Numbered from the stretch's first letter, positions 2,988 through 23,656 are shown. The stretch is 32,231 nt of DNA from an uncultured Eggerthellaceae bacterium (GCA_964411215.1 CAYPKC010000002.1:2099-34329); one strand, 5' to 3'. Numbers and translations are program-made. The notes: generated by a model not told the origin, from the sequence alone.

Positions 2988-3023
2988 GATACAACCCTTT
3001 CTATTAGCAAATCCTTTTTGCGC

Positions 3024-4183: not shown

Positions 4184-4211
4184 ACCCTATTGAGTCTTTT
4201 CAAGGCGCATC

Positions 4212-4547: not shown

Positions 4548-4582
4548 CTTACCTCCTCCCGCACCAAAAACGGGACAATAGG

Positions 4583-5557
4583 CTACGTCCCCGTTGTCCC
4601 GGTTTTGGTGCGGGAACCGCGTTCGCAGCGATTTCCCCACGAGTCAATGATCTCGCCGTTTTTGTACACGCAAATGACTTCGCAGTTGTTGGAGCATATG
4701 CCGCACTCGACTTCGCGCGTGACGAACTCAAAATCTTGGAAACCTTGCAGATCAATGGGCTTCTCGCCATTGGTTTCAGTCTCTGCTGCTGCAAGCAATG
4801 CGATCCCGAATGCTCCCATCAAATGCCCATCGTCATCAACGATCACCGGAAGCCCCAGCTCGTCTTCAAACGCTTTCACGACGCCAATGTTCTTGCTGAC
4901 GCCTCCCTGAAAGACAACCGGCGCAGAAACATGCTTGCCCTTCCCCACATTATTAAGGTAGTTGGACACCACGGCCTTGCACAGACCGGCAATAATGTCT
5001 TCGCGGCTATAGCCGACTTGAATCTTGTGAACTAAATCGGATTCTGCAAACACCGTGCAGCGCGCAGCGATTTTTGCAGGCTTATGCGATGTCAATGCAA
5101 TGCTGCCGAATTCTTCTACCTCAACGCCGAGTCTTTGTGCTTGGCTCGACAAAAAGGCACCCGTACCAGCAGCACAGAGCGTGTTCATCGCGTAATCGGT
5201 GGCGATGCCCCCATCCAAGAGAATGATCTTCGAGTCCTGGCCGCCTATTTCCAAGATCGTGCGCACATCAGGGTGAATATAGGTGGTGCCCACCGCATGT
5301 GCCGTAATCTCGTTTTTGACGACCTCGGCACCAAGCATCGCGCCAACCAAACGCCTTGCCGATCCGGTTGTGCCCGCACCGACAATCTCAACGTCTTCGC
5401 CAACTTGTCCTGCAAGATCAGCCACCACGCGCTTGGCAGCCTGAGACGGATTGCCTTCCGTCCACAAGTAGGATCGCGCAATAATGGTGCGATCCTTGTC
5501 AATGAGTACTCCCTTTGTAGAGATGGATCCGATATCGATTCCCAAATATGCTTTCAT
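4583..5557 (-). CDS. BadF/BadG/BcrA/BcrD-type ATPase (acyl-CoA dehydratase activase-like 'archerase') with Cys-rich C-terminal tail
   Basis: N-terminal actin-fold phosphate-1 motif LGIDIGSISTKGVL. Both [4Fe-4S]-bridging Cys contexts of HgdC-type activators are present (LCAAGTGAFL and RCTVFAESD). C-terminal tail is CGICSNNCEVICV...GNRCERG. Confidence 0.85.
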   Translation of the reverse strand: MKAYLGIDIGSISTKGVLIDKDRTIIARSYLWTEGNPSQAAKRVVADLAGQVGEDVEIVGAGTTGSARRLVGAMLGAEVVKNEITAHAVGTTYIHPDVRTILEIGGQDSKIILLDGGIATDYAMNTLCAAGTGAFLSSQAQRLGVEVEEFGSIALTSHKPAKIAARCTVFAESDLVHKIQVGYSREDIIAGLCKAVVSNYLNNVGKGKHVSAPVVFQGGVSKNIGVVKAFEDELGLPVIVDDDGHLMGAFGIALLAAAETETNGEKPIDLQGFQDFEFVTREVECGICSNNCEVICVYKNGEIIDSWGNRCERGSRTKTGTTGT

Positions 5558-5597
5558 TGCCTTAATCCGCCTTGGTCGTTAGGTACCGCTGTTATCG

Positions 5598-6713
5598 TTA
5601 CTTCGTGCTAAGCGCCCTGCCATGCTTTTTCCTCATAGCAAGCATGTCATAGAACGCTTCAAGCCTGGTTGAAAGTCCCGTATCGCTTGTCTCTGTATCG
5701 TAGGTCAGATACAAAATGGGGATATCGTAGTCTTCAGAGATGCGCCTCAGGATAGGAATGCAATCGATTTCAGGCGTGCATCCCGCACATTTTGCATGAA
5801 TCAGCCCGTCAAAGCCTGATTGCGCAAACTCTTTTGCTGCTGCGAGCGTCAGCGTCGATGTTGGCCCTGCATCGAACTGCAAGTATTCGGAAATACCGCG
5901 TCGCATATTCTTTTCGTGATAATGCAGGTAGCGATTGGAGAAATTCAGCTTTCGGTGCACTTCCGCCCCAAGCGCCATAAGCTTTTCGTCAAGCCCCAAA
6001 TTGGAATTCTCATCAATTGCCGTATAAAGCTCTCCCACAATGCCGATGCGTATGCAATCGTTCGGCTTATCGATGGGAATGGCGTTCATGCGATCGAGCG
6101 ATTTTGCACGAACCTCTTCAATGTCTTTAGCCGACGTGCAATGCATCATGTCGTTCAAAAACGACTCCCACGCTTGCGCATAGCTCCCCCGCGTCAGTTC
6201 AAAAGCGCCATGCTCCATATAGAAATCGCGCACTTCGTCAAGCGCGTTCAGCATCTTCGCGCACACAAGCAACTGCTTAATGCCAAAAGGCAAATTGATG
6301 TCAGGATTGACCAGGCGAAGCACTTCTTTGCCCCACCCGAGATACCCCTGCTCAATGCCGTGCGAGAAATTCAGCATGGTGAATTCATAGCCCATATCAC
6401 GCAGAATCTTCTCCTGCATCTCTCCGTAATAACCGAGCCGGCAAGGGCCGCCCACCTGCACAAGAAAATCCGCACCGCGCTCTAAAGCCTCAATCCAATC
6501 TCCCATCATGTGCTTGAAGGGCGTGCACACATAGTCGCTCGAGTTCTGTATCCCCAGTTCAAGGGTGCGTTTTGTCGGCTTTGGCAGCGGAAGATAATCG
6601 CAATCGAGAACTTGCTCGACAAAAAACTTGAACAGCGGCGCATAGTAGGCGTAACGAAAAACGGCAATCTTGGTGTCTTTGTGACTGCTTGCATCACGCT
6701 TGAACGTAACCAT
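5598..6713 (-). CDS. 2-hydroxyacyl-CoA dehydratase (HgdB/D-component)-like, activase-related protein
   Basis: About 371 aa with multiple conserved-looking Cys (YVCTP, GGPCRLG, KCAGCTPEIDC), resembling the C-terminal halves of fused activase-DUF2229 proteins. Start set to ATG 6713 (MVTFKRD), preceded by GAGGAGG. It overlaps the upstream stop by 20 nt. Confidence 0.65.
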   Translation of the reverse strand: MVTFKRDASSHKDTKIAVFRYAYYAPLFKFFVEQVLDCDYLPLPKPTKRTLELGIQNSSDYVCTPFKHMMGDWIEALERGADFLVQVGGPCRLGYYGEMQEKILRDMGYEFTMLNFSHGIEQGYLGWGKEVLRLVNPDINLPFGIKQLLVCAKMLNALDEVRDFYMEHGAFELTRGSYAQAWESFLNDMMHCTSAKDIEEVRAKSLDRMNAIPIDKPNDCIRIGIVGELYTAIDENSNLGLDEKLMALGAEVHRKLNFSNRYLHYHEKNMRRGISEYLQFDAGPTSTLTLAAAKEFAQSGFDGLIHAKCAGCTPEIDCIPILRRISEDYDIPILYLTYDTETSDTGLSTRLEAFYDMLAMRKKHGRALSTK

Positions 6714-7722
6714 GGGCAGGTTTCGCCTCCTCACCAAGATACGACCCCTTCTTCTTATACCGAAGAATGTCGACAAAACTCTCTATTCGTGTCTGAATGC
6801 CTGCCATGCCGCTTAACGAATCGATCATGAGATTCAGAATAGGAAGGTCGCTGAAATAGCGGATAACGGCATCATCAAACATAGAGTCGGGGCCACACGG
6901 AAATGCCGACAGCAGAATTACGCCGTCAATCCTCTTTTTGTTTTGAAGAAGAGAGCCCACCAGTTCGCGATTGATCAGCCACGGCAACGTATCGGAGAAT
7001 TCAAAGCTCCTTTTGAATCCAGCTGCACGGTCGCTTTCATCAGCATAGATCACAAATGCATTCAGCGATTCAATGGTGCGCACGATATCGCCGAAGATAT
7101 AGTCGTCATGCGCCACATAGGGATGCGCGATAAGAAGAATTGTCAATGGAGCGTCTATATCAGATGCGTGCTCTTTCAAAGACAGGCGCTTGAACTTATC
7201 GAGCAAGCAAAAGCTTTCTTCTTGATGAAGCGCCCGGCGTCTGTCGGAAAGAGCCTGCGCCTTATGCGCATCATGCCACGCTTGCGAAGCCTCTTGCGGT
7301 GAAGCGCCCAACGTGGATACGGCAAAATCAACAAAAGCCTTTTTCGTCTTCCGCACATTCTTGGAATCGGCCACGCGCAACGTCAGTACTTCTTGGCATC
7401 TGTCCCGAAATGTCGCTCGCACCATATCGGGAAGCGACTGGTACTTGGTGCAAAACCCTGCGCGTGGATTGGTGCTGTCATAACAGGGGATAAAGAGCGC
7501 GTCACATGAATCAACAAGGGAGGCGACGTGGCCCAGATAAATCTTTGAGGCAAGGCATACTTCATCAGATGATTCGGCTTCACCCAAATCAAAGATGGCC
7601 TTGTCGGTTGGCGGGCTCACTATTACCGTGCAGTCAAGCCTTTCGAGAAAGGTTTGCCACAGTATGCCGTACTTATACCAGAGCAACCCCCTGGGAATCC
7701 CTATGATTCTGTCTTGCTGCAC
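6694..7722 (-). CDS. Acyl-CoA dehydratase activase-related protein (DUF2229-like)
   Basis: N-terminus (R)IIGIPRGLLWYKYGILWQTFLERLDC resembles the IGIPRAL..Y start of CoA-enzyme-activase-associated domains. Cys-rich (EVCLASK, DSCDALFIPCYD, GFCTKY, FPCGPD). The start is uncertain because the GTG at 7722 sits only 2 nt after GGAG. Confidence 0.6.
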   Translation of the reverse strand: MQQDRIIGIPRGLLWYKYGILWQTFLERLDCTVIVSPPTDKAIFDLGEAESSDEVCLASKIYLGHVASLVDSCDALFIPCYDSTNPRAGFCTKYQSLPDMVRATFRDRCQEVLTLRVADSKNVRKTKKAFVDFAVSTLGASPQEASQAWHDAHKAQALSDRRRALHQEESFCLLDKFKRLSLKEHASDIDAPLTILLIAHPYVAHDDYIFGDIVRTIESLNAFVIYADESDRAAGFKRSFEFSDTLPWLINRELVGSLLQNKKRIDGVILLSAFPCGPDSMFDDAVIRYFSDLPILNLMIDSLSGMAGIQTRIESFVDILRYKKKGSYLGEEAKPAHGYVQA

Positions 7723-11033: not shown

Positions 11034-12185
11034 TTAGCTCTCGTCTTTTTGCTCTGCCATGATGGCGGCAAAGTCCGACATCACATCGGCAATAGGAATC
11101 TGTTGCGGACACACCTCTTCGCACGTGCGGCATCCAATACAGGCACTCGGCTTTTTATCGTCGGGCAAAGCGCTGAGCGCCATGGGTGCCATGAAGTCTT
11201 TGCTTCCCGTCAGAACACGCTGATTGTAGAGTGCAATGAGTGCCGGAATGTTCAGCTCTTGCGGGCAATAGCTTGTGCAATAACTGCATGCCGTGCACGG
11301 AACCGAATCGTCCGTGAGCTCCTTTGCTATATCCATAAGCACCGCAAGCTCAGTGCTGTTCAAGGGTTCATCCGTCTCAAAGATGCGCAGATTGTCTTTC
11401 ATCTGCTCTCTGTTCGACGTTCCCGACAAAATGGTGGTAACCCCGGGAATGCTTTGCAGATAGCGCATCGACCATTCGGCTACACTCACCCCAGGGCGCA
11501 GCTCCTGGAATTTCTGGATGTACTTTTCCGGAATATCTAACAGTTTTCCTCCGCGCAAAGGTTCCATAACCCAAATCGGTATGCCCATGTCGTTCAGGCG
11601 CTCGACCTTGTACTTGGCATTTTGGAACTCCCAATCAAGCCAGTTCAGCTGGATCTGGCAAAACTCCATGTCTTTGCCGTATGCATCTAGAAACCTATCG
11701 AACGTTTCTTTGTCTCCATGGACCGAAAAGCCCAGATGCTTAATGGTGCCCGCGCGTTTTTGCTCCATGAGATAGGTGTAAATGCCGTAACGCGCATCGT
11801 CGAGATAGGCATCAATGTTCATCTCGCACACATTGTGGAAGAGATAGAAATCAAAGTAATCCACCTGGCAGCGACTCAACTGCCGAGCGAATATCTCTTC
11901 GACCTTGCCCCACAGCTTCTTATCATAGCCTGGGAATTTGGTCGCAAGATAGAAGCTCTCACGATCATAGTCGCGCAAGATTGAGCCAACGATCTCTTCA
12001 GATTTTCCATCATGATAGCCATAGGCGGTGTCGAAATAATTGACGCCGCCTTCAAACGCCATCTTGATCATTTCTTTTGTCTGGGGAATATCAACATCGC
12101 CATCAGCATCGCCGATCTTGGGAAGGCGCATGGTTCCCATCGCGAATTGGGAGATATCAAGTGATTCAAACTTTTTGAATATCAT
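11034..12185 (-). CDS. Aldo/keto reductase with C-terminal 4Fe-4S ferredoxin-like domain (COG1453-type)
   Basis: AKR core (GTMRLP, NYFDTAYGYHDGKSEE, HLGFSVHG) plus two Cys clusters: CTACSYCTSYCP and CIGCRTCEEVCP. Start set to ATG 12185 after GGAAGGA. Confidence 0.85.
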   Translation of the reverse strand: MIFKKFESLDISQFAMGTMRLPKIGDADGDVDIPQTKEMIKMAFEGGVNYFDTAYGYHDGKSEEIVGSILRDYDRESFYLATKFPGYDKKLWGKVEEIFARQLSRCQVDYFDFYLFHNVCEMNIDAYLDDARYGIYTYLMEQKRAGTIKHLGFSVHGDKETFDRFLDAYGKDMEFCQIQLNWLDWEFQNAKYKVERLNDMGIPIWVMEPLRGGKLLDIPEKYIQKFQELRPGVSVAEWSMRYLQSIPGVTTILSGTSNREQMKDNLRIFETDEPLNSTELAVLMDIAKELTDDSVPCTACSYCTSYCPQELNIPALIALYNQRVLTGSKDFMAPMALSALPDDKKPSACIGCRTCEEVCPQQIPIADVMSDFAAIMAEQKDES

Positions 12186-12321
12186 GTTACATCCTTCCAC
12201 AAACGTTACGAATGCCGCAGGTAGACCCCATAATTTGCTTTACCCTATTTTAATGCTATTTACAAGTTAAGTAGTATTATTGATGCTGCAATAAAAGCGT
12301 CTGGAGAGATGGGCTGAGTGC

Positions 12322-13278
12322 ATGATTTCATTTTTCAAATCAGAACAAGGCGAAATAACCAGGATCGATGACATGGAACCTGGTTGTTGGGTCGATGTTC
12401 TGCAACCCACCTCAGAAGACCGGGAATGGCTACTTGACAAACTCGAGCTCGTTCCCGAGTTTGTCAAAAGCGCCTTCGATGACGAAGAAACGGCACATGT
12501 CGACGTCGATGATGATACGGGTCAAGTGCTCGTCACAGTCGACTGCCCGTTTGTGGAAGCCGAAGACGAGGTTGACGATAAATCCATCACGCAATATGAC
12601 ACGCACCCTTTGACGTTTATCTTTTTGCCTGAACGCGAATGCTTTGTGACGTTCAGCTTGCGCCGCAATGAGACCGTAGCGAATTTCGCCTACGGCCGGG
12701 TTCACAACGTCTATACCGAGCGTCGCACGCAATTCCTCTTAAAGATGCTTTTGCGTGTCACGCAGCGATACCTTGTGTGTCTGCGCTCCATCAATCGGCA
12801 AATCCGTGAATACGAACGCTCTCTGCGCGCCACCATGCAAAATACCGAGCTCATGAAAATGCTCGGTTTGGAGAAATCGCTTGTCTACTTCTCCACCTCT
12901 CTGCAAGGCCTTGAGTCAACGGTCTCGCGCATCGAGTACGGACGCGTGCTGGAGTTCAACGAAGATGACAAGGATCTTCTCGACGACGTGAAAATCGAGA
13001 TCGCGCAATCAACTGAAATGTGCTCCATCTATACTCACATTCTTGAAAGCGTCATGGATACGTTCTCAAATGTGATTAGCAATAATTTGAACTACACGAT
13101 ACGAACATTGACCGTGATCACCCTCATCATGGCAATTCCGACTATCATATTTAGTTTTTACGGCATGAACGTAGCAGGGCTTCCGCTTGTCAACCTATGG
13201 TGGTTCCCGTTCGTAATTGCCTTAATTATCTGCATTGTGGCAGTAGTGGTACTAAGAAAGGGTCGTTTTTTGAAATGA
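12322..13278 (+). CDS. CorA-family divalent metal ion channel
   Basis: 318 aa with a soluble N-domain and two C-terminal TM helices carrying the signature FYGMNV (GMN motif). The stop overlaps the next start (ATGA). Confidence 0.82.
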   Translation: MISFFKSEQGEITRIDDMEPGCWVDVLQPTSEDREWLLDKLELVPEFVKSAFDDEETAHVDVDDDTGQVLVTVDCPFVEAEDEVDDKSITQYDTHPLTFIFLPERECFVTFSLRRNETVANFAYGRVHNVYTERRTQFLLKMLLRVTQRYLVCLRSINRQIREYERSLRATMQNTELMKMLGLEKSLVYFSTSLQGLESTVSRIEYGRVLEFNEDDKDLLDDVKIEIAQSTEMCSIYTHILESVMDTFSNVISNNLNYTIRTLTVITLIMAIPTIIFSFYGMNVAGLPLVNLWWFPFVIALIICIVAVVVLRKGRFLK

Positions 13279-14696
13279 GAAATGTACGGATCAGTGACGA
13301 AACAATGAAACGTGGAGCTCTGACCAAAGAGCTCTCTTTAACTTTTAAGGAAAAACTCGAGCTTGCAAAGCTTCTTGATAACTCCGGTGTTTCTGTAATT
13401 GAAATCGAGGGCATTGAAAAACCGAAAGCAGATGCGCTTCGCATTAAATCCATCTCATCGCTGACGAAAAAATGCACGCTTGCGGTGCCGGTCAAGCTCG
13501 ATGGCTCAGATGTCGAAGATATTTGGGCAGCACTTGAAGAAGCGACTTCGGCGCGTCTGCAGGTGCAAGTCGCAACCAGCCCTTCCCGCATGGAATATGT
13601 CCATAAACTGAAAGCTGAAACCCTTGTCAGCGTTGTTGCAGACACCATAAAGCAGTGCCGCGAATTCACCGACAATGTCGAGTTCATTGCCGAAGACGCA
13701 ACGCGTACCGACAGCGATTACCTTGCAACCATTGTGCGTACCGCCATCGATGCCGGCGCCACCACCGTTACCATCTGCGACGATGCCGGAAAGATGCTGC
13801 CTGATGAGTTCAAGCAGTTCATGGCGCAGCTGAAAAGCGATATTCCCGAGTTGGAGCATGTCACGTTAGGCATTTCGGTCTCAAACGATCTGTTTATGGC
13901 CGTGTCTTCCACCATGGCTGGCATTATCGAGGGTGCCGGCGAAGTGAAGACGACCACCTATCCGCTCGGTGTGACGCAGCTTCCGAAACTTGCCCGCGCC
14001 ATCGCAAGTAAAAGCGACAGCTATGGGTTCGAGACGACCTTGAACATGACTGCCCTCAACCGCACGGCGCTCCAAATTGAACGTATTTGCGAACAAGGCA
14101 AGGTGAAGTCAACTTCGTTTGCCGCTGCTGCCGTCTCAGAGACCGAAAGCGATATCACGCTGTCTGTGCATGACAGCCGCGAAGCTGTTGCAGAATGCGT
14201 AACGCAGCTCGGATACGATTTGACCGACGAAGACATTTCGCTCGTCTACGAGTCATTTATGCGGATTGCCTCTAAAAAGGAAAACGTCGGCGGGAAAGAA
14301 CTTGATGCCATTGTGGCTTCTGTTGCCATGCAGGTGCCTCCGACCTACAAGCTTGAGCGCTACACGATCAACTCAGGCAACTCTATTAAGGCGACCGCCT
14401 ATCTCAAGATCATTATCGGCGACAAAGCGATTGAGAAAACAGGCATGGGAGATGGCCCCATTGACGCCGCCTTCGCTGCAATTGATGAGATTGTGGGCAA
14501 AACCTACGAGCTTGATGATTGGCAAATGGCTGCCGTCACCGAAGGCCAAGAAGCTATGGGCGAGGCGGTTATTAAGCTGCGCTCCGACGGCAAGGTTTAC
14601 TCGGGCCGCGGTATTTCAACCGACATTATCGGCTCAAGTATCCGCGCCTACCTGAATGCGTTGAACAAGGTCGTCTTTGAGGAGGATAACCAATGA
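13275..14696 (+). CDS. 2-isopropylmalate/citramalate synthase-like protein with degenerate active site (probable pseudoenzyme)
   Basis: HMGL-like TIM barrel collinear with LeuA (EDATRT, ATTVTICDDAGK) plus a C-terminal LeuA-dimer/regulatory domain (GDGPIDAAFAAI...AVTEGQEAMGEA). The catalytic motifs are replaced: DTTLRDGEQ becomes SDETMKRGAL and HxHND becomes SVSND. Start is ATG 13275 (MRNVRISDE). Confidence 0.75.
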   Translation: MRNVRISDETMKRGALTKELSLTFKEKLELAKLLDNSGVSVIEIEGIEKPKADALRIKSISSLTKKCTLAVPVKLDGSDVEDIWAALEEATSARLQVQVATSPSRMEYVHKLKAETLVSVVADTIKQCREFTDNVEFIAEDATRTDSDYLATIVRTAIDAGATTVTICDDAGKMLPDEFKQFMAQLKSDIPELEHVTLGISVSNDLFMAVSSTMAGIIEGAGEVKTTTYPLGVTQLPKLARAIASKSDSYGFETTLNMTALNRTALQIERICEQGKVKSTSFAAAAVSETESDITLSVHDSREAVAECVTQLGYDLTDEDISLVYESFMRIASKKENVGGKELDAIVASVAMQVPPTYKLERYTINSGNSIKATAYLKIIIGDKAIEKTGMGDGPIDAAFAAIDEIVGKTYELDDWQMAAVTEGQEAMGEAVIKLRSDGKVYSGRGISTDIIGSSIRAYLNALNKVVFEEDNQ

Positions 14697-17212
14697 GACT
14701 TTCCTTCTCTACCCGCGGCTGGGATTCATACACCTGGGAAGAACTGGTAGATGCTGCTGCCGATATGGGCTTTACCGGCATTGAGGTGTACGACCTCTTA
14801 AAACATGAGCGCCTGCTCAAAAAGGGCGAGCCTTTCCACGAATTCAGCGCCCGTGCAACGTCGCGCGAACTGCGCAACAAGGGGCTTTGCATTCCCGTGT
14901 TCGACACGTCCATCGACATATCGGTGGCGGAAGGTGCCGATTCAAAAGGCGCTGGGGCTGGCCGTGCATCCGGCGCAAGCGCGATTGATGGCGTGAAGCA
15001 GCTCATCGATATCGCCGCGATCATGAAGGTCGAAAACGTGTGCGTCAAAGCACAGTTTGGCGATGAGGAAAACGTGAGAGCGGCCCTGGATGAGCTGGTG
15101 CCGTATGCGTGCGAGAAGGATGTGTGCATCCTTGTTGAGACGAGCGGCATGTATGCGGATACCGCACGCTTAATGGCGCTCCTCGACACGTATGCGAACG
15201 ACCACCTTGCAGCCCTTTGGGATGTGCATCATCCGTACCGCGATGCAGGAGAGACCCCTTCCCTTTCTATCGAGCATCTCGGTGCTTATGTGAAGCATGT
15301 CCACATGCGCGATTCCAACGATGATGCCACCTATAATCTGATTGGCGAAGGCACGCTGCCGATAGATCAGATCATGCGCGCGCTGGCGTCCATCAATTAT
15401 GACGGCTTTGTCTCTCTTGAATGGAAGCCAGAATGGATGGATGACCTTACTGACATGGAAATCATCCTGCCGCATTTTGTGAATCGCATGCGCCGCTATC
15501 GCTATACCAGAAGCTCGCGTCCACACTTCTATCCAAACCACGATGGCACCGGCCAGTATCTGTGGAAGAAGGCTGAACTGATCGATTTGACGTTTCCTCA
15601 AGTGCTCGATTATGTCGCCGACGCCTTTCCCGACCAGTATGCGTTCAAATACACCACGCTGGATTACACGCGTACCTATGAAGAATTCCGCAAAGATGTT
15701 GATGATTTCGCCCGCGCGCTCGTGTCGCTGGGAGTAAAGCCTGGCAGCAAGGTGGCGATTTGGGCGACGAACGTGCCGTCATGGTTTATTACGTTTTGGG
15801 CAACGACCAAGATTGGTGCGATTCTGGTAACCGTCAACACCGCCTATAAGATTCATGAAGCGGAATATCTGCTTCGCCAGTCTGACACCCATACGCTGGT
15901 CATGATTGAAGGCGCTCTTGACTCCAACTACCGCGAGATCATAAACGAGCTTTGCCCGGAGATAGCCCAAAGCAAACCGGGCGAGCCGCTGCATTGCGAA
16001 CGGCTGCCTTTCTTAAGGAATGTCATTACCGACGGCTTCAGTATGCCGGGCTGCCTATCGTTTGACGAAGTCTTCGACCGCGCCGATATGGTCTCCCTTG
16101 ATACGATCAACCGCATGGCTGCCAACATCCACCAAGATGATGTGTGCAACATGCAATACACGTCCGGTACCACCGGTTTTCCGAAAGGCGTTATGCTGAC
16201 GCATCGCAATGTGGTCAACGACGGCAAAAGCATCGGCGACCGCATGGGGCTTTCTACGGCAGACCGCATGATGATTCAGGTTCCTATGTTCCACTGCTTC
16301 GGCATGGTGCTTGCCATGACTGCATCCATGACGCACGGCACAACCATGTGCCCTATTCCGTATTTCAGTGCCCGAGCGTCCCTTTCCTGCATCACGCAAG
16401 AGCGCATCACGTGCTTCCATGGCGTTCCGACCATGTTTATCGCGATGTTCAACCATCCCGATTACAGAAAGACCGACTTCTCCCATATGCGTACCGGCAT
16501 TATGGCAGGTGCGGGGTGTCCGCCTGAGCTCATGCGCCGCGCCGCTGATCCTGACGAGATGAATATGACCGGTATTGTGAGCGTATATGGACAGACGGAA
16601 TCTTCCCCTGGCTCAACGCAGTCGACGTGGACTGACTCGCTTGAGCTGCGTACCGAAACGGTTGGATACGCTTTCCCGCATGTTGAATGCAAGATCATCG
16701 ACCCCGAAACAGGCGAAGAGTTGCCCGATGGCGAAGATGGAGAATTCTGCTCTCGCGGCTATAACACTATGAAGGGCTACTACAAGATGCCCGATGCCAC
16801 GCTTGCCGCTATTGATGAAGACGGCTGGCTTCACTCTGGAGATCTAGCCCGCCGCAATCCCGACAAAACGTTTACGATCACGGGCCGTTTGAAGGACATG
16901 ATCATTCGCGGTGGCGAAAACATTTATCCGAAGGAGATTGAAGAGTTCTTCTTGGCGCATCCGAAAGTGCAAGACGTCCAAGTTATTGGCGTGCCCGACG
17001 ACAAATACGGCGAAGAAGTGATGGCCTGGGTCATCATGAATCAAGAAGAAGTCGCTGATGAGGCCGAATTGCGCGCCTACGCAGAAGAGCGGCTTGCGCG
17101 TCACAAAGTTCCGCGTTACTTCAAATTTGTTGACGAGTTCCCTATGAATGCTGCCGGCAAGATTTTGAAGTACAAGATGCGCGAGACTGCCGTCGAAGAG
17201 CTGGGTTTGTAA
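14693..17212 (+). CDS. Fusion protein: xylose-isomerase-like TIM barrel (sugar-phosphate isomerase/epimerase, AP-endonuclease-2 fold) + AMP-forming acyl-CoA ligase
   Basis: Residues about 1-275 are AP_endonuc_2-like (ILVETSG, WDVHH, VHMRD, VSLEW). Residues about 300-839 carry the adenylate-forming motifs YTSGTTGFPKGV, VYGQTESSP, GWLHSGDLA, GRLKDMIIRGGENIYPKEIE and AAGKILK. RBS GAGGAGGA lies 7 nt upstream, and the start overlaps the previous stop (ATGA). Confidence 0.85.
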   Translation: MRLSFSTRGWDSYTWEELVDAAADMGFTGIEVYDLLKHERLLKKGEPFHEFSARATSRELRNKGLCIPVFDTSIDISVAEGADSKGAGAGRASGASAIDGVKQLIDIAAIMKVENVCVKAQFGDEENVRAALDELVPYACEKDVCILVETSGMYADTARLMALLDTYANDHLAALWDVHHPYRDAGETPSLSIEHLGAYVKHVHMRDSNDDATYNLIGEGTLPIDQIMRALASINYDGFVSLEWKPEWMDDLTDMEIILPHFVNRMRRYRYTRSSRPHFYPNHDGTGQYLWKKAELIDLTFPQVLDYVADAFPDQYAFKYTTLDYTRTYEEFRKDVDDFARALVSLGVKPGSKVAIWATNVPSWFITFWATTKIGAILVTVNTAYKIHEAEYLLRQSDTHTLVMIEGALDSNYREIINELCPEIAQSKPGEPLHCERLPFLRNVITDGFSMPGCLSFDEVFDRADMVSLDTINRMAANIHQDDVCNMQYTSGTTGFPKGVMLTHRNVVNDGKSIGDRMGLSTADRMMIQVPMFHCFGMVLAMTASMTHGTTMCPIPYFSARASLSCITQERITCFHGVPTMFIAMFNHPDYRKTDFSHMRTGIMAGAGCPPELMRRAADPDEMNMTGIVSVYGQTESSPGSTQSTWTDSLELRTETVGYAFPHVECKIIDPETGEELPDGEDGEFCSRGYNTMKGYYKMPDATLAAIDEDGWLHSGDLARRNPDKTFTITGRLKDMIIRGGENIYPKEIEEFFLAHPKVQDVQVIGVPDDKYGEEVMAWVIMNQEEVADEAELRAYAEERLARHKVPRYFKFVDEFPMNAAGKILKYKMRETAVEELGL

Positions 17213-17238: not shown

Positions 17239-18837
17239 TTATGACACGTCATCAGTAGCGTTTTTTGCTTGGTCGCCTAAGACTTGATCGCGAATAATCT
17301 TGCCGTGTTCCGCTTGACGCGCCCATATATTTTCGCCTTCCGTCACTTCTGACTCTTTGAGTTTCTGTGCAGAGTTGCGTTTTCCGGGCGCATGCGAGCG
17401 TTCGCGCGCTTTTTGCTTTTCCACCCGCTCGGCTTTCCACTTCGCCATATCGCCTTCTATAGCCGAACGTGATATCGGGCGATCAAACGCTTCGCGCTTC
17501 CAGAAAAGCCAGATGGTCAGCAGCAGTGCCGCAATGGCTACTTGCCACGTGCCAATAAAGAGAAACTCTATGCCCGCAATGAGCACGAGCGCTGAGACAG
17601 TAATTGCCCATGCGGTTCGAAAGCGGAAGATAAGGCCGACGGCCAACACCATAAGACCGATCGAACTGAGGATTAAGGGTATGCCGACAACAAGCGAGCT
17701 CATGTCGACCCAGCTGGTCAGCATGGTATAGGGCGTGAGCATGTCAGGCAGCACGGCCACAAGGATATTAACCAGTCCGATCAAGAACACGAGCGTGCCG
17801 GAAATCCATGCAATGTCCTTATGCTTTTGGCGAAGCGTCGGCGACTTTTTCGCTTTGAAGAACCCTGACTGCGAAAGCATCACAGCACCTATGCAGAACG
17901 GAATCCAGAACATGATGCCGCGATAGACGAGTGCGATTGCAGCAGCAGTTGCGACGGTGCAACCATAAGCCGTGAGAATGGCGGTGATCATTGCTTCGAC
18001 AACACCCACGCCTTGCGGAGTGGGGCTCAAAATGACTGAGATTGCCCCGACCGCAAACGCTGCGACAAGAGCTTCCACGTTTTCAAAGCCGAACGCGTAG
18101 CCTATCGCGACAAGGCAGGCCATATTGAGAATGGCTGAAAAGGAGGCATATGAAACAGTGGTGATCGTGCCTTTGGGGTTTTTCGCAAGCAGGTTAGAAG
18201 TGCTGATAAACGAATGCGCCGTTGTCCTTCCCCATCCCGGCTTCAGCGGACGCTTGAACACAGACAGCACTTTATTGAAAAGCTTTTCGAGCAGTATGAA
18301 GACGCGATACAACACGCGCGGCCGTAAGTGTCCTACGAAAAAGAGGCTGGAGAGAATGACCAGTACGCCGGCGAGAAGAAGCCCGCCAATCAAAAAGACG
18401 GTGTTCATGCGCCCGGATATAAGCATTGTTAAAAACCCGATGATGGAGATGACGAAAACGGCTGCAAAATAGCCTATCTGCGAAAGGATGGCGCCACCCG
18501 TTGATTGACCTGCGTCGCATCCTTCGCGGTGCGCGTCATCGATGATGAACGCAACGCCGGTAGCACCGCTGAAGAGGCAAAACGTATTGATGAAGACGAG
18601 CGAGAAGATCAATACGACGTTGTGCCAAAATCCCGTTTTATGCCCGACCGCGTCGAAGGCTGCGTCATAGGATGCCGCTTGGACCAAATGACGGGCGAGC
18701 ATCAAGATAATGGAAATGATGAGCGGTACCAGCGCACCCGTCATCATGGTGTTGAAGAAATCGGCGAGATAATCGACGTTAGCAATGAGGAAACACACTG
18801 CCACAATAGCGAGTATTAGCAGTAATGCTTTTTTCAA
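17239..18837 (-). CDS. Polytopic membrane protein, MprF-like flippase / LPG-synthase-TM (UPF0104) type, without synthase domain
   Basis: About 12-13 predicted TM helices followed by a charged about 80-aa tail (KWKAERVEKQKARER...). The N-terminal architecture resembles lysyl-PG synthase TM/flippase-like domains. TTG start follows GAGGGGAA. The family call is tentative. Confidence 0.45.
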   Translation of the reverse strand: MKKALLLILAIVAVCFLIANVDYLADFFNTMMTGALVPLIISIILMLARHLVQAASYDAAFDAVGHKTGFWHNVVLIFSLVFINTFCLFSGATGVAFIIDDAHREGCDAGQSTGGAILSQIGYFAAVFVISIIGFLTMLISGRMNTVFLIGGLLLAGVLVILSSLFFVGHLRPRVLYRVFILLEKLFNKVLSVFKRPLKPGWGRTTAHSFISTSNLLAKNPKGTITTVSYASFSAILNMACLVAIGYAFGFENVEALVAAFAVGAISVILSPTPQGVGVVEAMITAILTAYGCTVATAAAIALVYRGIMFWIPFCIGAVMLSQSGFFKAKKSPTLRQKHKDIAWISGTLVFLIGLVNILVAVLPDMLTPYTMLTSWVDMSSLVVGIPLILSSIGLMVLAVGLIFRFRTAWAITVSALVLIAGIEFLFIGTWQVAIAALLLTIWLFWKREAFDRPISRSAIEGDMAKWKAERVEKQKARERSHAPGKRNSAQKLKESEVTEGENIWARQAEHGKIIRDQVLGDQAKNATDDVS

Positions 18838-18883: not shown

Positions 18884-19543
18884 TTATACCTGAGGGCTCT
18901 CCTCAAACGCGCTTGCAAAGTGAGCAACCAGCGCCGCTCCTGTTGGCGTGCACAGCTCGCCTTCAACATCCCCTGGTTGGTGGGGAAGGTTCTCTAAAAT
19001 GTTGGCTGTTGCCGGGGCAGGAATAGGAAGTCTGCCATGAGCGCATTCCACGAAACCGTAGCCACAGGTAAGAGGGGTGGCCGTGATGCTTTGAGGCGCG
19101 AGTTGCTCGATGAGCATGCACGTTGCGACAATGTAGCCAAGCGCAAACGTGTTGCCAACTTCATGAAAATGCACGGTATCGGGTGTTGTGTTGTGCGCTT
19201 TTGCCTCTGCGCGTGCAAGGATGTCATAGACCGCACAGGCATCCTTTTTGACCTGGTCGCTCACGTGTAAGGTGCAGATGGTATCTTCAACCTCTTTGCG
19301 TGCATGGTGCTCATGCGCGGGCGCGGCATAGTCGCTTTCAGTGAGTCCGTCTTTTGTTATCTGGAAGGCGGCGTGCGGCGTGTCTCTGTGATAGACCAGT
19401 TCTGCCCGCGCCCCTGGAAGTCCAGCAGCATTAAAACGGTCTACAAAGCTCTCTGCTTCTTCGGGAGAAAGAAGATCGCATAATTGGTTTGCAATCGAAT
19501 CTTTGCGCGCACCGTTTTCGCAATCAAGGATTAACTTTTCCAT
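18884..19543 (-). CDS. larC: LarC-family nickel insertion protein, N-terminal domain only
   Basis: 219 aa. Has the LarC/DUF111 N-domain features LILDC.., a short His-rich patch (PAHEHHA), VHFHEVGN, CAHGRLPIPAPAT and GELCTPTGAAL. It ends where the LarC2/CTP-binding domain would begin. ATG 19543 directly abuts the larB stop (TAAATG). Confidence 0.7.
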   Translation of the reverse strand: MEKLILDCENGARKDSIANQLCDLLSPEEAESFVDRFNAAGLPGARAELVYHRDTPHAAFQITKDGLTESDYAAPAHEHHARKEVEDTICTLHVSDQVKKDACAVYDILARAEAKAHNTTPDTVHFHEVGNTFALGYIVATCMLIEQLAPQSITATPLTCGYGFVECAHGRLPIPAPATANILENLPHQPGDVEGELCTPTGAALVAHFASAFEESPQV

Positions 19544-20284
19544 TTATACACATCCTGTATGGTTGATTTTGCTTGCGAGGACGCCGGCGCCAAAGCCGTT
19601 GTCGATATTGACAACGCACACGCCGCTTGCGCACGAGTTCAGCATCGAAAGCAAGGCAGCAACACCTCCAAATGATGCGCCGTAGCCCACGCTTGTGGGA
19701 ACAGCAATGACTGGGCACGATGCCATGCCGCCAACAATGCTCGCGAGCGCACCTTCCATACCCGCAACAGCGATCACTACCGACGCGTCAACGATATCAT
19801 CGAGATGCGCAAGCGTGCGATGCACTCCCGCAACGCCCACATCATAGACGCGCTTCACCGCATTACCCATCATCTCAGCCGTCAGGGCCGCTTCTTCTGC
19901 AACAGGAATATCGCTGGTACCGCCAGTCATCACAAGCACGGTTCCCACGCCCGTTGGCTCAGGTATGGTTCCCACCATACCGATACGCGCATGGTCGTGA
20001 TATTCAAGGCTTACCACTGATTCGATCAGGCGCGCCTTTTCCTTGGAGAGACGCGTAACCAACACCCTCTCCTGACCTTCCGCGATCATCGCTTCAAGAA
20101 TGCCCGTGATTTGTTCAGCGCTTTTGCCTTCGCCATAAATAACCTCGGAAGCTCCTTGGCGAACTTTGCGATGCAAATCAACGTTGGCATATCCAAGATC
20201 GACAAATGGTTTAACTTTCAACGCATGCTCGGCGTCTTCAATAGATATTTCTCCCGCGCGCAATTGTTCGAGAATCTCTCTCAT
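19544..20284 (-). CDS. larB: Nickel-pincer cofactor biosynthesis protein LarB (pyridinium-3,5-biscarboxylic acid mononucleotide synthase, PurE-like)
   Basis: 246 aa. The N-terminal segment LGYANVDLHRKVRQGASEVIYGEGK and the PurE-like core VMTGGTSDIPVAEEA...VIAVAGMEGALASIVGG are characteristic of LarB. The start overlaps the larE stop (ATGA). Confidence 0.9.
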   Translation of the reverse strand: MREILEQLRAGEISIEDAEHALKVKPFVDLGYANVDLHRKVRQGASEVIYGEGKSAEQITGILEAMIAEGQERVLVTRLSKEKARLIESVVSLEYHDHARIGMVGTIPEPTGVGTVLVMTGGTSDIPVAEEAALTAEMMGNAVKRVYDVGVAGVHRTLAHLDDIVDASVVIAVAGMEGALASIVGGMASCPVIAVPTSVGYGASFGGVAALLSMLNSCASGVCVVNIDNGFGAGVLASKINHTGCV

Positions 20285-21141
20285 CTTGTCTGTCCCCTTT
20301 TATATCCTTCGATATCAAGTGTGATATACGTAAGTCCCAAATGCTTCAATGCCTCAGCAATCGCTGTACGCGTATCACCTGCCATAAACTGCGGTATGTC
20401 CGTTTCGTCGAGTTCTATACGCGCAATATCGCCGTGATGCCGCACGCGAACGTGGTGAAAGCCCCACTCATGCAACACGTCTTCTGCCTGTTCAATGGTA
20501 CGCAGCTTGTCTTCTGTGATCTTACTGTGCGTTGGAATGCGCGTCGCCAAACAGGCATACGCAGGTTTATCCCACGTTATAAGCCCTCTTTGACGCGACA
20601 GTGCGCGAATATCTTCCTTCGTCAATCCTACCTCGCGCAAAGGGCTTTTCACTCCAAGCTCTGTCAGCGCTTTCATGCCAGGGCGATAATCGTGTTCGTC
20701 GTCTTTATTCGTTCCATCAACAACAAGCGCTTTTTCCGCTTGGCATCCGCAAATGCTGCGACTCAATGCGTAAGCATCAGCCGTCTTTACAATCTCTTTG
20801 AAGAGCTTCAGCTTGCATACATAGCATCGCTCATCATTATTTTCAGCAATCTCGGGATCTTCTAAGACATCAACGGCAACTTCTATCAAATGCACGCCCA
20901 TCTCACGGGCAAGGCTGCGCGCTTCTTCAATCTCAGAAGCAGGAATAAACGGAGATACCACCATAATGGCGCATGCGTGTGAGCCGCACACATCATGTGC
21001 CACTGAGAGTAAAAAGGTCGAATCCACTCCTCCTGAGAAGGCAACAGCGACATAGGCATTTTGCCCATACTGGCGAAGCATCGCCTCAAGGTTCTGCAGT
21101 TTTTGCTCTCGCTCTTGCTTACACATTTCCAAGATAGACAT
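20281..21141 (-). CDS. larE: LarE-type ATP-dependent sulfur transferase (PP-loop ATP pyrophosphatase)
   Basis: PP-loop AFSGGVDSTF; CxxC (RCYVCK) and ACLATR Cys; C-terminal HHVRVRHHGDIARIE. The start is ambiguous (ATG 21141 or 21126), and both overlap the upstream radical SAM stop. The 349-aa ORF-track version adds an implausible antisense-derived leader. Confidence 0.87.
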   Translation of the reverse strand: MSILEMCKQEREQKLQNLEAMLRQYGQNAYVAVAFSGGVDSTFLLSVAHDVCGSHACAIMVVSPFIPASEIEEARSLAREMGVHLIEVAVDVLEDPEIAENNDERCYVCKLKLFKEIVKTADAYALSRSICGCQAEKALVVDGTNKDDEHDYRPGMKALTELGVKSPLREVGLTKEDIRALSRQRGLITWDKPAYACLATRIPTHSKITEDKLRTIEQAEDVLHEWGFHHVRVRHHGDIARIELDETDIPQFMAGDTRTAIAEALKHLGLTYITLDIEGYKRGQTR

Positions 21142-21982
21142 ACTCCAAATAACGCCGCGCAATGTCTTCAAAGTCCCTGAGAAGTTGCACGTCTGTTGGA
21201 TTACTATCAAGCATTTTATACTGCGGGAAGAACCGCGAAAGATGCAACGGCAGAGAAGTATCAAGAGAAGCAAGCCACCTGCACTCTTCTTCGAACTGCA
21301 CTGGATCGTCAGAAAGTCCCGGCACCACAAGCGTTGTCACTTCCACATGAATGCCCGCCTCTTGTGCCTCCGCGATGGTGTGCTTGACTACGCCAAGCCC
21401 GCCCGGCGCACCAACCGTTTCGTATCCTTTTTCGGAAAAGCACTTCAAGTCGATATTCATCGCATCAATGGATGGAATAAGAGAGGCGAATGTCTTTGGC
21501 GTGATGTATCCATTGGTCACTACCACGCACAAAAGGCCTTCTTCGTGCAGCAAATCTCCTACCGCTTTCAGGTATTCAGGCGCAATAAGCGGTTCATTGT
21601 AGGTCAGTGCGACGCCAATGTTGCCTTGGAACACAAGCTCTTTTGCCTTCTCTACCAGCTCGGTTGGAGAGATATAAACGGCGTGTTCTCCGAGGGCGTC
21701 ACATGCACGCGCCATGGAGATGTCGCTGTTTTGGCAGAAGTTGCAGCGCAAATTGCATCCGTAGCTCCCGTACGACAAAACAAGCGATCCCGGATGAAAG
21801 TGCGCAAGCGGCTTTTTCTCTATCGGATCGAGCGCCAAAGCACATGCTTCGCCAAAGTTCCTACTGACGACCTGACCATCTATGCAGCTCCTTGCCCCAC
21901 ACAGTCCCAGCTCCCCTTCAGCAATGCGGCACGTATGGGGACACACCGTACAAGTTGCCGCGCTTTGAGCACGATCATTCAT
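21119..21982 (-). CDS. AmmeMemoRadiSam-system-type radical SAM enzyme (PflA-like activase family)
   Basis: N-terminal Cys motif CTVCPHTCRIAEGELGLCGAR, then the radical SAM CxxxCxxC motif as CNLRCNFCQN. Length and C-terminal LHLSRFFPQYKM match this family. ATG 21982 overlaps the upstream stop by 8 nt. The alternative TTG at 22006 overlaps by 32 nt. Confidence 0.87.
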   Translation of the reverse strand: MNDRAQSAATCTVCPHTCRIAEGELGLCGARSCIDGQVVSRNFGEACALALDPIEKKPLAHFHPGSLVLSYGSYGCNLRCNFCQNSDISMARACDALGEHAVYISPTELVEKAKELVFQGNIGVALTYNEPLIAPEYLKAVGDLLHEEGLLCVVVTNGYITPKTFASLIPSIDAMNIDLKCFSEKGYETVGAPGGLGVVKHTIAEAQEAGIHVEVTTLVVPGLSDDPVQFEEECRWLASLDTSLPLHLSRFFPQYKMLDSNPTDVQLLRDFEDIARRYLEYVYLGNV

Positions 21983-23453
21983 GGCGAACAACTTCAAACC
22001 GCTCAATGTCTATCGGCATCGACGTATCGTTGGGATCAATGCCTGCTTTCATGCAAGCAATCTTAAACTGCTGATCGACGGTGTCGACCCCTTCGAGGTC
22101 AGGCAACAGAAGCCCCCGCTTAAAACCTTGCGTCACGATAATGCCGTAGCGCTTCGGATCCATGTCATCAAGCGTGGCAGGCTCCGGGGTAAAGAGCACA
22201 TCCACGTTGATGACCAGATTATCAAGCTCGCGTGGCGTGATAGCCGGGAAGCGCGGATCGCGCGTTGAAGCCGAAACAGCATTTGCAATGATCTCTTTTG
22301 CGAGCGAAGACTGGACAGGCTCAATGGTGCCGATGCATCCACGAAGATCGCCCGTGTCTTTCGTGTGTATGGAAACGAAACATCCCGCACGCGCCGGCTC
22401 GTCATCTCCTAATTGAGGCGCTTCAGGAACCGCGCCCGAGGTGACATAATCTTCCACCGTCTCATAGGCCAAGGCTACGAGGGGGTCTTGCGTTTTCTGG
22501 TCCGGTTCAGGAGAGATTTCTGCGGCGATCGGCTCCTGCGCACGAGCGCCTGCGGCGTTTGTTGAAGGTGCGACAGCTTGCGCTTGCGCCTGTCTCTGTG
22601 CTTTTGTCTGCACCCCACCGTCCTCATCAACATCGGCTTCAAAAGTCGCAACGCCATAGCCCACGCCAAACGGGCCTTCGTAGGAAATAAGTTCGCTTTG
22701 GTACGTGACGCCGCTATCTGAAGATGCCTGCTTCAGGGCTCCCGCCATCATGATGAAGCCTGAAAGGCCGCACTCAGCAGCATTTTCGCAAACCTGCGTA
22801 TCGAGTTCTGCAAATTTGGAGGGATCCCCGGATTGAACGACATCGACAAAGGCCTTGTCGAAAACAGGGCCTGCCGGATCAAACCCATAAGGTCCCTCTT
22901 CCTTCAACTTATGCGACAGGTCGCCACTGACGAGCAGCACGCATTTTCTGCCGCACTCCTTTGCCGCCTTCGCAATGGCAGCGCCAAAGGCAAGAAGCTG
23001 ATTTCGCGGAAGACCCGCTCCGCCAATCGAAATTGCTTTATAAGCCTGCGCCGGATACACCTTGTCAATGTAGTACAGCGGCACCATCATGCCATGGTCA
23101 AGGGGGCGCGCTTGGGTGTCAATAATGCCTGCAGGAATGCCTTCCTTATGGGCAATTTCATTGAGCGCCTGGCGCATCTCTTCGTCATATTCGATCGTGA
23201 GCTGAACTTGCGGCGCATGGAACTGGGCAAGGTTTCCCGTTGCTTTATCCCCTCCTGCCACAAAAATCCAATCGGCATAATAGGCTGTATGCGGGCTAAT
23301 AATGATGATCGTTTCTGGCGCAATTTCCGCTATGCGCTTGGCTACATGTTCGTATCCCTGCAGCGTAGCTTGGATTTTCATCTCTTCGCCATGGCCAACT
23401 TCGGGCACGGCAAGAGGTGGATGCGGAACGATAAAGGCACTTACTAACGACAT
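21975..23453 (-). CDS. Fusion: class III extradiol dioxygenase (LigB/Memo-superfamily) domain + AMMECR1 domain
   Basis: The N-domain has FIVPHPP, IIISPH and SGDLSHK motifs. A low-complexity Q/A/P linker follows (QTKAQRQAQAQAVAPSTNAAGARAQEP...). The C-domain has the AMMECR1 signature GCFVSIH...LRGCIGTIEP...RDPRFP. ATG 23453 follows AGGAGGAAAC. Confidence 0.85.
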   Translation of the reverse strand: MSLVSAFIVPHPPLAVPEVGHGEEMKIQATLQGYEHVAKRIAEIAPETIIIISPHTAYYADWIFVAGGDKATGNLAQFHAPQVQLTIEYDEEMRQALNEIAHKEGIPAGIIDTQARPLDHGMMVPLYYIDKVYPAQAYKAISIGGAGLPRNQLLAFGAAIAKAAKECGRKCVLLVSGDLSHKLKEEGPYGFDPAGPVFDKAFVDVVQSGDPSKFAELDTQVCENAAECGLSGFIMMAGALKQASSDSGVTYQSELISYEGPFGVGYGVATFEADVDEDGGVQTKAQRQAQAQAVAPSTNAAGARAQEPIAAEISPEPDQKTQDPLVALAYETVEDYVTSGAVPEAPQLGDDEPARAGCFVSIHTKDTGDLRGCIGTIEPVQSSLAKEIIANAVSASTRDPRFPAITPRELDNLVINVDVLFTPEPATLDDMDPKRYGIIVTQGFKRGLLLPDLEGVDTVDQQFKIACMKAGIDPNDTSMPIDIERFEVVRHE

Positions 23454-23656
23454 GTTTCCTCCTATCAAACATGAGGCACACAGCATCTGAAATCCATTTG
23501 TGTGGTTTTTACAAAGGTGGCAGCATCTGCGTATTCATATGCTGAATTTGTTTGATGTGCAGCTTCTTATAGCTTATTCTCGATATTGCTTTTAGACTAC
23601 GTTGAAACGAATACGTAGAACATGCGTTGACCAGGGTTTAGAAAGGCCGAATAAGA

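Follow-up and report, generated by a model that had tools for sequence, protein, structure and literature searches.

The locus considered here raises the question of why a bacterium should keep a homolog of 2-isopropylmalate synthase (LeuA) that has lost its catalytic residues, and what this protein does beside a ligase. It lies in a 32,231-nt stretch of DNA from an uncultured Eggerthellaceae bacterium (hereafter, the window), in which three plus-strand open reading frames (ORFs) encode a CorA-like channel, the LeuA homolog (pseudo-LeuA), and a TIM barrel fused to an AMP-forming acyl-CoA ligase (the fusion). An earlier reading made from the sequence alone (the sequence-only reading) had described the three ORFs, an ATGA stop/start overlap at each junction, and GAGGAGGA as the ribosome-binding site of the fusion gene embedded in the pseudo-LeuA gene. 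All of these are found where it had placed them, the overlaps at 13275–13278 and 14693–14696 and the ribosome-binding site 5 nt 5′ of the fusion-gene ATG; only its coordinate "13693-14696" is a slip, for 14693–14696. It had also treated the three genes as a unit that maps to no recognizable pathway. As described below, the conserved unit consists of two genes, pseudo-LeuA and then the fusion. Judging from sequence comparison and genomic context, we favor with moderate confidence the reading that the fusion activates isovalerate for reductive carboxylation to leucine, and that pseudo-LeuA is its leucine-sensing regulatory subunit.

Pseudo-LeuA and the fusion form a conserved pair

We fetched 106 related loci (denoted by L numbers), approximately 75 of which have enough sequence to see the gene 3′ of pseudo-LeuA. 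The metagenome loci were found with the family alignment, and their pseudo-LeuA identities reach down to 35%. The fusion directly follows pseudo-LeuA in all 13 genome loci (Adlercreutzia, Slackia, Parvibacter, and Eggerthellaceae and Coriobacteriia metagenome-assembled genomes [MAGs]) wherever the contig continues. The same arrangement is found in approximately 65 metagenome loci, the only exceptions being contig ends and five true leuA loci. The stop-to-start distance in the 48 full-length pairs ranges from −4 to +37 nt. Stop and start overlap (−4 or −1 nt) in 29 of them, and 42 show either an overlap or a distance of at most 7 nt, so that the junction is more than chance. The tight coupling that had been proposed from the window is therefore borne out for these two genes by universal synteny.

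The carriers of the pair include Coriobacteriia, Oscillospiraceae, Lachnospiraceae, Bacteroidales-assigned MAGs, and Thermoguttaceae. A single pseudo-LeuA, that of L104, is listed in 1147 index blocks of the assembly collection; the cluster to which it belongs at 90% identity comprises 5796 members. The two proteins carry the names "AMP-binding protein," "hypothetical protein" or, wrongly, "2-isopropylmalate synthase" in the sources, and literature searches on pseudo-LeuA, isovalerate-CoA ligase, reductive carboxylation, and the T-box regulon gave no paper describing the module.

The position of corA should be noted, since the sequence-only reading had taken all three genes as one unit that ought to be syntenic in other genomes. 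The CorA protein has the expected fold and the GMN pore motif (YGMN near the C terminus; 170 bits in Pfam), and it scores under the TIGR00383 equivalog cut-off (102 versus 201 bits). Among approximately 105 related loci, including the closest relatives (66–68% identity), none has corA 5′ of the pair, and the corA/pseudo-LeuA junction is unique to the window. The sole other corA seen, in L021, is 6 kb from the pair on the opposite strand. Beyond the pair itself, the surrounding genes in Slackia heliotrinireducens, Adlercreutzia, and other lineages, the 66–68% relatives included, are unrelated. A stoichiometric three-protein system, in which CorA, pseudo-LeuA, and the fusion would tie metal transport to some unnamed ligase pathway, could be read from the ATGA overlap joining corA and pseudo-LeuA in the window and from the Mg-ATP requirement of the ligase (general knowledge), but the lack of corA 5′ of the pair at every other locus makes it extremely improbable. 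The trio is thus not a conserved unit; corA is a chance operon neighbor that is co-transcribed here and lies outside the conserved module.

Pseudo-LeuA is a catalytically dead but maintained LeuA homolog

LeuA is a DRE-TIM metallolyase with a C-terminal leucine-binding regulatory domain. When pseudo-LeuA is aligned with the Neisseria meningitidis and Listeria LeuAs, TLRDGEQ is replaced with TMKRGAL and HCHND with SVSND, and ERAGN is deleted. Across the family, the metal-ligand Asp is changed to Arg, Gln, or Leu, both His residues are changed to Ser, and the RDGEQ, DTVG, and ERAGN motifs are gone; we take this Asp and the two His residues to be those that bind the metal in LeuA structures. Approximately 40 residues fewer than in LeuA are present at catalytic subdomain I (the HxSGIHQDG segment, which we take to be the motif of this subdomain), and matches to bona fide LeuAs split at this point. 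The score with the best LeuA model of NCBIfam is 315 bits against a cut-off of 532, and the protein falls far under every LeuA, CimA, and NifV (homocitrate synthase) cut-off.

The overall architecture is nevertheless that of LeuA, since the HMGL-like barrel and the C-terminal LeuA_dimer domain are both kept (119.7 and 111 bits in Pfam, respectively). The motifs GDGPIDA, TEGQEAMGEA, and GRGISTDI...AY.NALNK of the regulatory domain are retained. The AlphaFold model (pLDDT 81) has a barrel that superimposes on those of the N. meningitidis and Listeria LeuAs with root mean square deviations of 1.6–1.8 Å, and Foldseek comparison of the model with 3rmj and 3ewb gives target-normalized TM-scores of 0.84–0.93.

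The losses in the catalytic motifs are common to 17 Coriobacteriia homologs (56–68% identity) and to the representatives of over 100 clusters formed at 50% identity, each 450–500 aa long, while the bona fide LeuAs obtained in the same homolog search retain every motif. All 48 full-length pseudo-LeuA ORFs from the related loci are intact (449–497 aa). The LeuA_dimer domain is more conserved than the dead barrel both in mean column conservation (0.73 versus 0.53) and in median identity to the window protein (62% versus 37%). A decaying pseudogene with frameshifts varying among relatives is ruled out by the intact ORFs and the strongly conserved C-terminal domain. It is thus well supported that pseudo-LeuA is catalytically dead yet maintained. 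The sequence-only reading was right in both respects: the protein has lost its catalytic residues and kept its regulatory/dimerization domain, and the gene is a conserved intact ORF. A search of the LeuA_dimer domain alone against the PDB by sequence, intended to map the leucine-binding residues, gave no match.

One locus, L009, has its pseudo-LeuA match in two pieces (639–2203; residues 1–398 and 382–472), which is probably an indel in the MAG and is the sole such case. At least one member, P0041 from S. heliotrinireducens (L015:10001–11416), is labeled "2-isopropylmalate synthase" in NCBI and UniRef although the metal ligands are absent. With this label, metabolic reconstructions would credit the organism with a step of the leucine pathway that P0041 cannot perform.

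The fusion combines an intact ligase domain with a divergent TIM barrel

The core motifs of the ligase domain (TSGTTGFPKG, YGQTE, SGD, GRLKD, and AGK) are all intact in the window protein and are invariant or nearly so across 46 homologs. The ligase domain is also the best conserved part of the module. Its mean column conservation is 0.81, against 0.59 for the fused TIM domain, and its identity to the homologs in all related loci is 63–85% (65–84% for those under T-box control, described below), compared with 29–68% for the fused TIM domain and 35–68% for pseudo-LeuA. These ligase identities suggest that the same ligase chemistry is likely in the window. The closest NCBIfam model of the fusion is PRK12583, a generic fatty-acid CoA ligase family whose cut-off of 832 bits is not reached (691 bits), and among the curated NCBIfam models neither pseudo-LeuA nor the fusion exceeds any cut-off.

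The fused TIM barrel gives a confident AlphaFold model (pLDDT 88.8). Foldseek finds ketose 3-epimerases, UlaE, and AsbF with TM-scores of 0.65–0.70 and 13–19% identity, that is, generic superfamily matches that give no functional lead. Glu149, Asp177, His204, and Glu243 of the fusion presumably correspond to the metal-ligand positions of the superfamily (assigned without structural superposition), and all four are occupied in the window protein. In approximately one-third of lineages the putative ligands are replaced (E149K/V, D177N/S/C, and E243V/D/Q), and for this reason we favor, without confidence, a mainly structural role for the barrel.

In L102 (8001–10494) and L103 (8001–10320), the TIM barrel and the ligase are encoded as separate genes, the unfused TIM proteins being P0366 and P0347. 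The neighboring PFOR and DUF5692 genes are split as well, so true unfused forms were rejected in favor of frameshift errors in the assemblies as the most likely cause.

In a mirror-tree analysis, the distances among the dead LeuA barrels correlate with the fused TIM domain distances more than the signal of the ligase accounts for (partial r of 0.56 versus 0.31). Both barrels evolve fast, and this co-evolution signal is weak evidence. The signal also bears on whether pseudo-LeuA is a leucine sensor at all. The protein could instead be a structural or dimerization scaffold, or its barrel could have acquired a new metal-independent activity or binding function (for example, for 2-oxoisocaproate or CoA, or for docking of the ligase to VOR or PFOR for channeling). 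The correlated barrel distances would suit such a role, as would the polar barrel residues shared with LeuA that are invariant or nearly so in the family (Asp8, Thr10, Ser102, Glu107, Tyr108, Lys113, Asp141, Arg144, and Asp169). However, the strongly conserved part of pseudo-LeuA is the regulatory domain and not the barrel, no member retains the catalytic subdomain or any of the three metal ligands, and the leucine-specific transcription control described in the next section shows a system tuned to leucine. We therefore regard a role other than leucine sensing as unlikely, though worth keeping in sight.

Leucine-specific T-boxes precede the pair in relatives

T-box control means induction by uncharged tRNA, as for genes of leucine biosynthesis, transport, and charging. 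Rfam T-boxes (RF00230) are found directly 5′ of pseudo-LeuA in L037, L042, L070, L094, and L098 with 99–117 bits, the gathering score being 93 bits. The T-box core motif is found in 40 loci, and a Stem-I covariance model built from the five leaders gives 59 matches. The specifier was read at columns anchored by the Rfam alignment (three bases, one base, a 4-bp lower helix, and the GA motif), in a register that we assume to be that of the glyQ T-box structures. The specifier is a leucine codon in all 43 leaders preceding pseudo-LeuA (CUC in 23 and CUG in 20). As controls, the three true leuA loci have CUC as specifier, and the eleven T-boxes found elsewhere in the same loci have AUC (Ile, 8) or GUA (Val, 3). 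ilvE and pseudo-LeuA are separated by the Leu T-box in L098 and L070, and therefore the leucine-specific control applies to the pair itself.

L104, from an abundant uncultured gut bacterium of the Oscillospiraceae type, has T-boxes for all three branched-chain amino acids, each before a different ligase. A Leu T-box (CUG) is followed by pseudo-LeuA and the fusion, then an Ile T-box (AUC) by a ligase with helix-turn-helix (HTH) and cupin domains, and then a Val T-box (GUA) by another HTH-cupin-ligase, a P-loop protein, a ferredoxin, VorB, and VorA. The best NCBIfam match of both HTH-cupin ligases is MbcS (412–436 bits). In purified form, MbcS activates 2-methylbutyrate and isobutyrate but acts poorly on isovalerate (PMC10026030). 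If the two MbcS-like ligases of L104 handle 2-methylbutyrate and isobutyrate, isovalerate is left for the third ligase, the fusion.

MbcS-matching HTH-cupin-AMP-binding ligases behind Ile (AUC) or Val (GUA) T-boxes are seen at L104:14036–19411 and also in L027, L028, L032, L062, L084, L097, and L078; they are candidate 2-methylbutyrate and isobutyrate ligases with sensor domains of their own. A 66%-identical relative has separate, divergent Cupin_2 and AMP-binding genes 5′ of pseudo-LeuA (L106:3160–5515, minus strand), which look like a split version of the Firmicutes HTH-cupin-ligase. In L041 (444–1476), a Leu (CUC) Stem I lies approximately 900 nt 5′ of pseudo-LeuA with no convincing ORF between them; it is either part of an unusually long leader or a second element. 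A c-di-GMP-I riboswitch (L037:2051–2134) and a malK-I RNA (L104:7738–7916) are unrelated to the module.

Branched-chain 2-oxoacid genes adjoin the pair in relatives

Recurrent partners of the pair were identified by clustering all neighboring ORFs of the related loci. In 23 loci, the pair stands beside VorBAC (VOR), a PFOR-type 2-oxoacid:ferredoxin oxidoreductase, and/or IlvE. VorB-VorA-VorC-IlvE, or what remains of it on the contig, is directly 5′ on the same strand in nine loci (L045, L064, L070, L075, L081, L082, L088, L090, and L098), and IlvE alone is 5′ of the pair on two short contigs (L065 and L071). IlvE lies 3′ of the pair in L041. L094 and L097 have a different gene order, with IlvE, the P-loop protein, VorB, and VorA 3′ of the pair, and in both of them IlvE overlaps the stop codon of the fusion. 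VOR is also 3′ of the pair in L104. A single-chain PFOR-type oxidoreductase is found directly 3′ of the pair in L013, L036, L037, L042, L047, L074, L102, and L103, of which L013, L102, and L103 have pseudo-LeuAs 52–63% identical to that of the window. VorB and IlvE score above their NCBIfam cut-offs (VorB, 537 bits against a cut-off of 399; IlvE, 494 against 307). VOR acts on C4–C5 branched acyl-CoAs. Together with the leucine T-boxes, the VOR/PFOR and IlvE neighbors in relatives point to salvage of leucine from a branched-chain fatty acid, and so a pathway can be proposed where the sequence-only reading had recognized none.

A P-loop protein of approximately 220 aa (GHYGSGKT; faint similarity to CbiA and MrpORP, no NCBIfam family) is encoded 5′ of vorB in 9 of 11 vorB loci (L098:173–835, L104:19426–20097, L045, L070, L075, L082, L088, L094, and L097) and is present also in L028. 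It may be an uncharacterized accessory or maturation factor of VOR.

Proposed function in leucine salvage from isovalerate

It has been known since the 1960s that rumen and gut anaerobes make leucine, valine, and isoleucine from isovalerate, isobutyrate, and 2-methylbutyrate. This reductive carboxylation route, reportedly described in rumen anaerobes by Allison and co-workers, uses VOR-type 2-oxoacid:ferredoxin oxidoreductases. One paper assumes that the activation step is done by a relaxed acetyl-CoA synthetase (PMC7709123). In our literature searches, the activating enzymes of the reductive carboxylation of branched-chain acids were not found assigned.

In the proposed mechanism, the ligase domain of the fusion would convert isovalerate (3-methylbutanoate), ATP, and CoA to isovaleryl-CoA. 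VOR or the PFOR-type enzyme would then reductively carboxylate isovaleryl-CoA to 4-methyl-2-oxopentanoate, and IlvE would transaminate the latter to leucine. Pseudo-LeuA, co-translated with the ligase, would be its non-catalytic partner, whose LeuA-type allosteric domain senses leucine and throttles the ligase. The main role of the two poorly conserved TIM barrels, the dead one of pseudo-LeuA and the one fused to the ligase, would be to form the interface between pseudo-LeuA and the fusion. We infer that isovalerate is the substrate, that the two proteins form a physical complex, and that leucine binds pseudo-LeuA and inhibits the ligase. The sequence-only reading had proposed a complex with the pseudo-synthase as a ligand-sensing subunit from the gene coupling in the window, and this is a reasonable model because pseudo-LeuA is tightly and universally coupled to the fusion. 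As to the direction of the pathway, AMP-forming ligases run towards the thioester. That starvation for valine would induce VOR, and starvation for leucine the pair, agrees with a biosynthetic rather than a degradative role.

The acyl-CoA product could alternatively be a FabH primer for iso-branched membrane fatty acids, with the pair induced by a shortage of leucine, from which isovaleryl-CoA is normally derived. Leucine T-box control would suit such sparing of leucine equally, MbcS-like ligases recur in the module loci, and MbcS of Staphylococcus aureus provides a precedent (PMC10026030). This explanation is nevertheless clearly unlikely. Primer supply needs no transaminase, but IlvE is co-located with the pair and even overlaps the fusion gene in two loci; the VOR of L104 stands behind a Val T-box, and it would make little sense to induce the breakdown of valine in cells starved of it; and fab genes were seen in no locus examined.

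The ligase might also act on another carboxylate, related to leucine or not (isocaproate, 2-hydroxyisocaproate, and medium-chain acids are examples), the link to VOR and IlvE then being at the regulon level only. Substrate specificity in this superfamily is not readable from sequence, and the nearest curated model is the generic PRK12583. In L104, however, the three ligases behind three T-boxes match the three branched-chain acids one to one, and the C4–C5 branched substrates of VOR also disfavor such an acid, making it very unlikely.

Several observations weigh against leucine salvage by the pair, above all in the lineage of the window. The loci with T-boxes, and most of those with VOR or IlvE, are Firmicutes-like metagenome loci with 35–51% pseudo-LeuA identity and not Coriobacteriia. 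The flanks in the Coriobacteriia clade are mostly unrelated, the sole support there being the PFOR gene 3′ of the pair in L013, L102, and L103, so that direct support within Coriobacteriia is thin. No T-box is found in the window or in any Coriobacteriia-type locus by Rfam, by the core motif, or by the Stem-I model; these loci also lack a conserved leader, a leader peptide rich in leucine, and any motif broadly shared 5′ of the operon. Of such partner genes, the window itself has only one for a class-IV aminotransferase, 8 kb from the pair on the opposite strand. As for the T-boxes, 13 of the 43 leaders have C instead of the usual purine after the specifier, and those of L104 score 82–92 bits, just below the gathering score, although their E-values are all 5e-17 or better. 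No characterized protein is a close homolog of the ligase domain, whose nearest curated model is generic and matched below the cut-off. Finally, most members keep the putative metal ligands in the fused TIM barrel, which hints at catalysis.

Two side observations concern the same Coriobacteriia-type loci. A 16-mer, CTCCTTATCTAGGCGC, occurs within 300 nt 5′ of the pair in four of them (L009, L016, L022, and L106). The class-IV aminotransferase of the window is IlvE-like (40% identical to the IlvE of L098) and belongs to a minus-strand group at 3131–7722 with a BcrAD/BadFG ATPase and two DUF2229/HGD-D "CoA enzyme activase" genes.

Layout and surroundings of the locus

The features of the locus are listed in Table 1. 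The mechanically called ORF of the pseudo-LeuA gene begins at 13197, and the N termini of homologs fix the start at the ATG at 13275. An Rfam search of the window gave no match to any RNA element, and a scan for promoters and terminators around the operon gave nothing above the shuffled expectation.

Table 1 Features of the three-gene locus; positions are counted from the first nucleotide of the window
Feature	Positions	Strand	Remarks
Intergenic region 5′ of corA, presumed promoter of the three-gene transcript	12201–12321	+	No T-box, no known RNA element
CorA-family divalent-cation channel gene	12322–13278	+	318 aa; Pfam CorA 170 bits; YGMN motif
Pseudo-LeuA gene (LeuA paralog without metal ligands and catalytic subdomain)	13275–14696	+	473 aa; HMGL-like 120 bits, LeuA_dimer 111 bits
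LeuA_dimer (allosteric/dimerization) domain of pseudo-LeuA	14295–14672	+	Pfam, residues 341–466
GAGGAGGA ribosome-binding site of the fusion gene, within the pseudo-LeuA coding sequence	14680–14687	+	Direct sequence reading
TIM-barrel::acyl-CoA-ligase fusion gene	14693–17212	+	839 aa; AP_endonuc_2, AMP-binding, and AMP-binding_C (Pfam)
Xylose-isomerase-like TIM-barrel domain of the fusion	14693–15532	+	Pfam AP_endonuc_2 80 bits
AMP-forming acyl-CoA ligase domain (AMP-binding and AMP-binding_C)	15614–17161	+	Pfam 305 and 68 bits

Other genes of the window were also noted. A minus-strand gene at 11034–12200, divergent from corA, encodes an aldo-keto reductase with a C-terminal two-[4Fe-4S] ferredoxin domain. 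On the other side, a minus-strand gene (17239–18837) converges on the fusion gene with a gap of 26 nt; its 532-aa product has an MprF-like flippase/transmembrane region without the lysyl-phosphatidylglycerol synthase domain and a long charged C-terminal tail. It is followed at 18884–21330 (minus strand) by a cluster for biosynthesis of the nickel-pincer cofactor, comprising genes for LarC1 (219 aa, corresponding to its N-terminal part alone), LarB, and a LarE-like PP-loop protein; a lactate racemase gene is not found nearby. At 21119–23486 (minus strand), a radical-SAM gene overlaps a LigB/AMMECR1 fusion gene, forming an AmmeMemoRadiSam-type pair, and an H+-pyrophosphatase gene is located at 858–3041.

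Significance and comparison with known systems

We put forward, more tentatively than the function itself, that the reductive carboxylation of isovalerate to leucine in gut and rumen anaerobes has in this pair its missing, dedicated first enzyme, with leucine feedback provided by a LeuA-derived pseudoenzyme. The module is a concrete and common candidate for the activating enzyme of the leucine branch. If the proposal is true, an allosteric module would have passed in evolution from the enzyme that begins the canonical leucine pathway to the one that begins a salvage pathway, and pseudo-LeuA would be a clear example of a pseudoenzyme turned regulatory subunit. With the MbcS-like ligases behind Ile and Val T-boxes, it would then belong to a complete, amino-acid-specific system converting branched-chain fatty acids to branched-chain amino acids in abundant uncultured gut bacteria. 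Both classes of compounds are host-relevant gut metabolites, and the identity of their consumers and producers matters for models of microbiome metabolism. All parts of the module come from known superfamilies, and both the pseudoenzyme regulator and the logic of branched-chain fatty acid activation have precedents.

Pseudo-LeuA has the same Pfam domains, barrel fold, and regulatory motifs as LeuA. In contrast to LeuA, it lacks the metal ligands and the catalytic subdomain, and it is always paired with the ligase and never with leuBCD. The fused barrel, in turn, shares its fold with xylose-isomerase-like TIM barrels (ketose 3-epimerases, UlaE, AsbF, IolE, and hydroxypyruvate isomerase), and in the window protein it has the four putative ligands. 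It differs from them in being fused to an acyl-CoA ligase and in its low identity (13–19%) to solved members, and no sugar chemistry is evident in the proposed pathway.

The VorBAC/PFOR and IlvE neighborhood and the amino-acid-specific T-boxes of the relatives fit the reductive carboxylation route of rumen bacteria, to which a dedicated and regulated ligase module would be a new addition. MbcS (methylbutyryl-CoA synthetase of S. aureus) is likewise AMP-forming and activates exogenous branched short-chain acids, and it has paralogs in the module loci. However, the ligase of the fusion is of another subfamily (approximately 24–25% identity), MbcS is not among the 25 best NCBIfam matches of the fusion, and MbcS feeds lipid synthesis and has neither a TIM-barrel fusion nor a pseudo-LeuA partner.

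The concept is shared with HisZ-HisG. HisZ, a catalytically dead paralog of HisRS, is the histidine-sensing regulatory subunit of HisG (ATP phosphoribosyltransferase), so that a pseudoenzyme from the same amino acid system gives end-product feedback to an unrelated catalytic subunit at the first committed step. The folds and the pathway differ between the two systems, and the complex and the feedback that we infer for pseudo-LeuA and the fusion would place this pair beside HisZ-HisG.

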